Source of the DNA: Eledone cirrhosa
Taxonomy: Eukaryota
Length of the DNA stretch: 64,000 bases
NCBI GenBank assembly: GCA_964016885.1
Contig: OZ024750.1
Span: 15,128,001-15,192,000, forward strand
Reading direction: 5' to 3'
This document shows, in pieces, positions 7,281-7,630 of this stretch. A model generated the notes under the pieces. That model saw nothing but the letters and a program-made list of their open reading frames with translations, did no database searches and was not told where the DNA came from. The stretch's first letter is position 1; the number at the start of each line of letters is the position of its first letter. Position numbers and translations under genes: made by a program.

Positions 7281-7287
<7 letters not shown>

Positions 7288-7630
7288 GTGAGGTTTTTTT
7301 ACAAAATAAAAAAAAACGAGGTGTCCTACACGAGTGAAAGTATAAAGAAAAAAGATGAAATCGAAAATCCAACTGGAGTCTTTTTTTTTAAATATATATT
7401 TATCTGGTTCCTTTACCGGTTTCGCAGTTCTTCTGCTTTTCAAAAGTAGAATTGAGATGGAGGGTTTGTGGTTTTTCTCACATCAGATGTGAGAAAAACC
7501 ACAAACCCTCCATCTCAATTCTACTTTTGAAAAGCAGAAGCACTGCGAAACCGGTAAAGGAACCAGATAAATATATATATTTAAAAAAAAAAGACTCCAG
7601 TTGGATTTTCGATTTCATCTTTCTTCCTTA
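7281..7630 (-). mobile_element. Family C fold-back element (~145 bp arms), hammerhead motif on both strands
   Basis: Centre near 7485; motifs at minus 7411-7446 and plus 7524-7559. Confidence 0.88.
7524..7559 (+). ncRNA. Minimal type I hammerhead, U3-A8 variant (family C)
   Basis: CTT-TTGAAAA-GCAG(aagca)CTGC-GAAA-CCGGT-A-AAG: palindromic stem III ACCGGT, GUA triplet. Confidence 0.7.

Follow-up and report, generated by a model that had tools for sequence, protein, structure and literature searches.

Five copies of a short motif in the window (the whole stretch of 64,000 nucleotides of Eledone cirrhosa that was analysed) read UUGAAAA where a hammerhead ribozyme is expected to read CUGANGA. This raises the question of whether they are hammerheads with U3-A8 in place of C3-G8 and, if so, whether the swap speaks for selection on catalysis. 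The five places named in a sequence-only reading are borne out: the 11-mer TTGAAAAGCAG occurs exactly five times in the window (Table 1), and allowing one mismatch adds two more matches, against a chance expectation of 0.76 at up to one mismatch (from shuffles). Each 36-mer is made up of CUU, UUGAAAA, GCAG, a 5-nt loop, CUGC, GAAACCGGUA and AAG, and the five are identical but for loop II, which is AAGCA in the plus copy (7538-7542) and AAGAA in the others.

The hammerhead reading is right: the motifs have the layout of a type I hammerhead, with U3 and A8 in the core, GUA as the site and a palindrome, ACCGGU. UUGAAAA, GAAA and GUA are present in all five copies, giving a core with a Watson-Crick 3-8 pair. 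Stem II is closed by G10.1-C11.1, with GCAG/CUGC formed in the folds, the short stem I (CUU/AAG) is recognised by inspection, and ACCGGU provides the palindromic helix III and loop that permit a dimer. Two details of the earlier description need amending. The GCAG/CUGC stem and the other parts are all there, but GAAA, ACCGGU and GUA overlap and are not consecutive. Similarly, a stem I of 3 bp holds for the window copies (three contiguous pairs) but not for the youngest subfamily of the family, which has four (CCUU/AAGG). By eye, stem I can be lengthened across a 2-nt bulge in the 7281 pair only; the folds give this no support and it was rejected.

Table 1. Hammerhead motifs and the insertions carrying them, numbered from the first letter of the window.
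Feature	Position	Strand	Details
U3-A8 hammerhead motif	7524-7559	+	stem I 7524-7526/7557-7559; core 7527-7533; stem II 7534-7537/7543-7546; GAAA 7547-7550; palindrome ACCGGT 7550-7555; A17 7556; predicted cut 7556/7557
U3-A8 hammerhead motif	7411-7446	-	predicted cut between 7414 and 7413 (NUH rule, PMC3884650)
Minus arm, last ~205 nt of Penelope-like terminal repeat plus ~60-nt tail, to (TA)n	7281-7484	-	matches full copy L236 (terminal repeat) at 92%
Plus arm, inverted 5'-truncated copy of the terminal repeat without tail, to (TA)n	7486-7632	+	
Truncated copy	3881-4094	-	motif 4020-4055; short inverted stub to about 4115
Truncated copy	51657-51861	-	motif 51795-51830
Second inverted pair	58153-58449	both	plus arm 58295-58449, motif 58337-58372; minus arm 58153-58297 (or from 58147)

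The Rfam hammerhead families have no hit at gathering score in the whole window; therefore, a CUGA-based or Rfam search misses the UUGAAAA motif, as had been anticipated, and the same miss is described in Schistosoma (Cervera and De la Pena, PMC4209133). The lack of an Rfam hit, the short stems and a fold energy no better than that of shuffles would also suit a chance look-alike in the A/T-rich end of a repeat. This is very improbable and largely refuted by the agreement at 12 of 12 core positions, by G10.1-C11.1, by a palindrome placed where Penelope hammerheads are described, and by the recurrence of the layout with other stems in related elements. The isolated TTGAAAA at 53849, which is followed by a 7-bp stem and GAAA but has no palindrome, is probably there by chance.

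The swap itself is already published for natural and for Penelope hammerheads and is not new. Natural U3-A8 core covariation is cited as active in vitro (Perreault et al. 2011, PMC3088659), and U3-A8 replaces C3-G8 in a hammerhead of Penelope-like elements (PLEs) that the CUGA descriptor misses, with about 1,300 hits (PMC4209133). That positions 3 and 8 pair in the active hammerhead, as the sequence-only reading had it, agrees with PMC3884650, where C3-G8 pairs in the active form and a C3-G17 pair is presumed inhibitory. The available part of bioRxiv 10.64898/2026.07.22.740005 has no bearing on the hammerhead core. The swap being known, the motif as first described changes little, and the useful extra is the subfamily series described below.

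The five window motifs are leftover 5'-truncated ends of a Penelope-like retrotransposon encoding a reverse transcriptase and a GIY-YIG endonuclease. In a search of the species' own 3.0-Gb genome, the returned copies often run further upstream of the motif, where a GIY-YIG domain is encoded in the same sense (Pfam E 2.4e-6, above cutoff) and, further upstream and also in the same sense, an RVT_1 match falls just under it (E 2.3e-6, 27.9 bits vs a cutoff of 29.6). Translations of one copy (L032) have a single-ORF layout with the reverse transcriptase motifs GLKF (GxKF), DKG and YLDD, followed by GIY-YIG with CCHH, the linker between the two domains being CGRSNCGTC (CX4CxxC). A sense motif lies about 200 nt upstream of the start codon in 9 of 30 copies of the 5' part of the ORF. 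Among the 8 full copies, which were taken from these 9 and thus already had the upstream motif, 6 carry a motif in each of the two direct terminal repeats, 4.8-5.1 kb apart, the second about 1 kb after the stop. None of the 8 has an unbroken ORF, the longest being 472 aa. This repeat-ORF-repeat layout is that of PLEs. Copies have their 3' end, at (TA)n, at +80 (28/79) or +148 (35/79) from the predicted cut, which matches the optional tail described for endonuclease-bearing PLEs; partial tandems, inverted 5'-truncated copies and a microsatellite target are also present in the family. The linker points to Neptune or Nematis as the candidate clade, the endonuclease tree below being built without reference sequences. 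Exact patterns count 4,790 motifs in the middle subfamilies and 6,394 in the youngest, that is, more than 11,000 near-intact motifs. In the oriented tandems L206 and L201, at about 660-690, the end of the upstream unit meets the next unit via a short ATATATAC before the start codon, which suggests an element inserting into a TA stretch of itself.

Within the window, 7281-7632 is a single insertion, bordered by (TA)n runs, in which two truncated ends face each other head to head. Its two motifs lie on opposite strands and therefore cannot pair as a same-sense dimer. The palindrome at this place thus offers no dimer context. When the insertion is read as one RNA, its oppositely oriented arms fold into one hairpin, predicted at about 145 bp and -227 kcal/mol. 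Such a hairpin would bury the motif, and a transcript running through the insertion is predicted to stay uncut. In the second inverted pair, the minus arm lacks the core: it begins inside the motif, 1-4 nt upstream of the predicted cut. A non-LTR retrozyme was considered and rejected, as the copies in the window derive from a coding element and stand as solitary or inverted stubs, not as head-to-tail units; no head-to-tail non-coding hammerhead array is found among the tandem repeats of the window.

Other features lie near these insertions or resemble them. Adjoining the 7281 insertion, 7054-7230 is another (TA)n-flanked element with a palindrome of about 100 nt (7054-7150), and a similar start is found near 343. 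The 251-nt inverted repeat at 57648-58153, with the canonical core CTGAAGA...GAAAGTA in each arm (57937 on the plus strand, 57864 on the minus), is probably another PLE end. On the minus strand at 24726 there is a C3-G8 motif, CTGATGAAGGAGTAACGTCCGAAACGTT, similar to a large GGAC family of the C3-G8 CGAAACGUH set described below. The fragment at 47234-47728 resembles the C terminus of what we take to be a non-LTR retrotransposon protein.

Could the motif cut? Folded alone, 52-mers form stem II only, without stems I and III, at z values of -0.5 to -0.9 relative to shuffles, and this failure of the modelled monomer to fold into a hammerhead counts against the reading preferred here. ACCGGU forms a self-duplex of -8.3 kcal/mol, and the minimum-energy structure of a two-copy co-fold contains stems II and III. 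In the model that we propose, two motifs, lying 4.8-5.1 kb from each other on the same transcript or carried by separate ones, would join through ACCGGU into a 6-bp stem III. The active fold would contain a U3-A8 pair, and cutting after GUA, at a low rate, would release unit-length RNA. U3 could also pair with A17, extending stem I and damping the rate as is presumed for C3-G17. Weak cutting as dimers is what has been described for PLE hammerheads (PMC4209133; review PMC6765202). On balance, we lean moderately toward the predicted self-cleavage being real in this family.

The ends of copies bear on this. Copies departing at the predicted cut and at -1 and +1 number 249, 246 and 196 matches, respectively, and junction-like copies amount to 11/30 at the cut vs 7/30 and 5/30 at its neighbours (p 0.12), so there is no clear pile-up. 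Most copies span the predicted cut, and 41 of 79 have their 5' start 61-80 nt upstream of it. The same is true of all five window copies (7484-7486, 4094, 51861, 58295), this region being a hot spot of 5' truncation and inversion family-wide. The hot spot may be a candidate transcription start, the short copies deriving from uncut RNA, in line with Anolis, where uncut RNA is the main template (PMC11167929). RNA contigs of three runs were compared with the repeat, and neither their ends nor their strand is readable; one contig of a second organism crosses the motif with three differences.

Does the state of positions 3 and 8 reveal selection? Within the family, U3-A8 is a fixed inherited state and not covariation. 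When positions 3, 7 and 8 are left free, the genome has 4,790 matches, and U3 occurs together with A8 in 4,711 of them. Position 3 is altered in 43 (26 C, 9 G, 8 A), all keeping A8, position 8 in 36 (20 G, 9 C, 7 T), all keeping U3, and the free position 7 in 32; the C3-G8 double change is absent from these 4,790 matches. The alignment of genomic copies, proposed earlier as a check for constraint, thus turns out against it at these positions: U3 and A8 are lost as often as free position 7 (chi-square p 0.43). Inserted copies therefore look neutral, positions 3, 7 and 8 mutating alike. U3-A8 is also fixed in all five subfamilies. A C3-G8 ancestor within the family, with CUGA(A/U)GA (L097, L098), was found only by a pattern demanding C3-G8. 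Unbiased sampling of its subfamily, the oldest, gives U3-A8, with position 3 kept in 39 of 40 copies, the exception being L097 itself, which has a broken stem I too; both copies were rejected as chance double changes.

Core and flank were compared in 114 of 193 aligned copies, those not picked by the motif. Core G/C and CpG positions decay like those of the flank (p 0.84 and 0.83), catalytic G12 included. Core A/T positions are less changed than flank A/T positions (14/1,135 vs 74/2,491, p 0.001). This difference counts against strictly neutral inserted copies and is what one would expect if the host selected them as active ribozymes within its transcripts, such as in introns. Such host selection is nonetheless highly unlikely: in the same 114 copies free position 7 (1/113) and loop II (9/456, p 0.25) change as little as the core does, G/C and CpG positions of the core decay as in the flank, the genome-wide counts at positions 3, 7 and 8 are equal, and the palindrome would bury the motif. 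We suspect that misalignment of A-runs in the flank lies behind the A/T difference.

Between families, the 3-8 pair does covary. For the CGAAACGUH core type, matches number 14,480 with C3-G8 and 2,733 with U3-A8, vs 657 with U3-G8 and 578 with C3-A8 (controls 52, 251, 88 and 92, respectively), counts that reflect amplification and not independent events. Among the matches listed (the first 100 each), most of the mismatched U3-G8 and C3-A8 cores resemble single decays of large families. U3-A8 is shared by several elements. A set of 2,764 matches (control 24) is dominated by a second family, which combines UUGAAAA and GAAACCGGUC with a GAUGG/CCAUC stem. It has the full repeat-ORF-repeat structure, with 58% identity in the reverse transcriptase and 55% in the endonuclease. 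In a third family the core reads UUGAUAA, the stem is UGCA/UGCA and the endonuclease is 47% identical. These two related families (endonuclease 47-55% identical) thus keep U3-A8 and ACCGGU, and their paired stem II sequences differ. Full repeat-ORF-repeat copies (L338:643-5465, L339:647-5355) represent a sister family that has UUGAAAA together with a GUC site. Further U3-A8 hammerheads, of the form UUGAGAA GCCC...GGGC GAAACGUACGUA with an 8-nt palindrome (L342-L346, L350), lie downstream of endonucleases with a CxCX5C linker; these elements are a different PLE group, Hydra-like by the description in PMC8557442. Other families of the CX4CxxC type, 26-29% identical, carry C3-G8. For a family with CUGAUGA..GAAACCGGUC (L037-L063), a link to an ORF was sought and none obtained, its 99 matches comparing with 150 in the control. 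In a 12-row endonuclease tree, U3-A8 needs one change if unrooted and two with a midpoint root; a Watson-Crick 3-8 pair is present in 12/12 rows, which were found by patterns demanding such a pair.

The claim that covariation argues for selection therefore survives on other grounds than those first given. The argument from five copies is invalid, as they go back to a single source sequence with U3-A8 fixed and positions 3, 7 and 8 decaying alike. What supports selection on the 3-8 pair is that one combination or the other, C3-G8 or U3-A8, is retained in families whose stems differ, and that mismatched cores are rare. With more than 16,000 pattern matches to U3-A8 families in this genome, it is also confirmed that searches restricted to CUGA undercount hammerheads.

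The history of the family adds to this picture. The 193 copies fall into five subfamilies, four of them (A to D) told apart by markers that lie outside the stems and the fifth (E) by a stem I change, with flank divergences of 5.5% (A), 5.0% (B), 4.3% (C), 3.6% (D) and 0.9% (E, biased low). With matched selection, D and E differ in divergence (p 0.048) and A and D do not (p 0.65); hence, the order from A to E is only partly shown. Stems I and II are stronger in the younger subfamilies. Along the series, pair 10.1-11.1 goes from G.U, the state of the oldest subfamily, to G-C, position 10.4 goes from U to C to G, giving a fourth stem II pair, and in stem I UA becomes AC, again giving a fourth pair. 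Five of the nine changes from A to E hence fall on four positions in or beside helices and yield two new Watson-Crick pairs and the G.U to G-C replacement, the stem energy passing from +3.2 to -4.7 kcal/mol (a gain of -7.9 in nine changes). Random placement of nine changes matches this helix gain in 162 of 200,000 trials (p about 0.001), in a test that is post hoc and assumes uniform mutation. Should A be a weakened side branch, two gains would remain. The core is untouched over the nine lineage changes, which is expected by chance in 16% of trials and proves little alone. It is conceivable, and we propose it tentatively, that one Penelope lineage rebuilt its hammerhead stepwise round a fixed U3-A8, so that activity was selected in the element and the subfamilies form a natural allelic series.

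The opposite reading is a hammerhead by descent that no longer cuts, in a terminal repeat constrained otherwise, as promoter, for reverse transcriptase binding or for endonuclease recognition. The flanks are also little changed, the nine changes from oldest to youngest being spread over 84 positions, as compared with about 66% identity in a 1.6-kb upstream stretch (one old vs one young copy). The stems of subfamily A are very weak, and the wide spread of this oldest subfamily with a stem II unstable alone (+1.6 kcal/mol) counts against our preferred explanation; the copy ends, without a clear pile-up at the cut, agree with the non-cutting alternative as well. Elsewhere, Anolis ribozyme mutants have no effect on insertion in vitro, the element needing no cleavage there (PMC11167929), and Naiads spread without canonical hammerheads (PMC8557442). 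Loss of cutting fits less well with five of nine changes falling in or beside helices and ending in better pairing, and with a core and palindrome kept in related families despite stem turnover, and we regard it as unlikely. We thus consider it quite probable, as a whole, that this is a U3-A8 type I hammerhead in a PLE terminal repeat, likely cutting slowly as a dimer and likely selected in the source elements, and that the window copies are truncated and apparently neutral.

If the stepwise rebuilding is true, the A to E series bears on the question of whether hammerheads benefit PLEs or are only carried along by them, their role being called unclear in PMC8557442. It also supplies an age-ordered set of five natural variants of a single ribozyme as material for side-by-side assays. 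Among the publications listed for such a subfamily series, and for Penelope hammerheads with octopus, none concerns a series of this sort.

Among known systems, the Cercyon PLEs of Schistosoma mansoni (PMC4209133) share with this family a U3-A8 core missed by the CUGA descriptor, a location in the terminal repeat, a short helix I and copies that are mostly single or on opposite strands, from truncated elements. Unlike in Cercyon, stem II has 4 bp here (7-8 there), there is no extra base between 9 and 10.1, loop III is a 2-nt palindromic one, the linker is CX4CxxC and at least 11,000 motifs are near-identical. The strict min-HHR consensus (Cervera 2014) was accordingly set aside, A9 being directly followed by G10.1 and helix II having 4 bp. 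The PLE hammerheads with a small palindromic helix III of Drosophila, rotifer, shrimp and mosquito (PMC4209133) and that of Anolis Poseidon (PMC11167929) have in common with this family the type I order, a dimer-suited palindrome, the place in the terminal repeat and an optional tail at copy ends; unlike the present motif, those described in these two sources carry C3-G8. The Anolis ORF starts inside stem II (PMC11167929), and here it starts about 170 nt after the cut. The U3-A8 variants of Perreault et al. show the same covariation; in the available text of PMC3088659 they are not tied to this element, and the combination of A17 with a 3-bp stem I is not found. Finally, the element resembles Neptune and Nematis (Craig et al. 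2021, PMC8557442) in its C-terminal GIY-YIG with CCHH, its linker of the CX2-5CxxC type, its partial tandems, its inverted 5'-truncated copies, its tail and its microsatellite targeting, and differs from them in the length of that tail, about 60-68 nt here vs 30-40.
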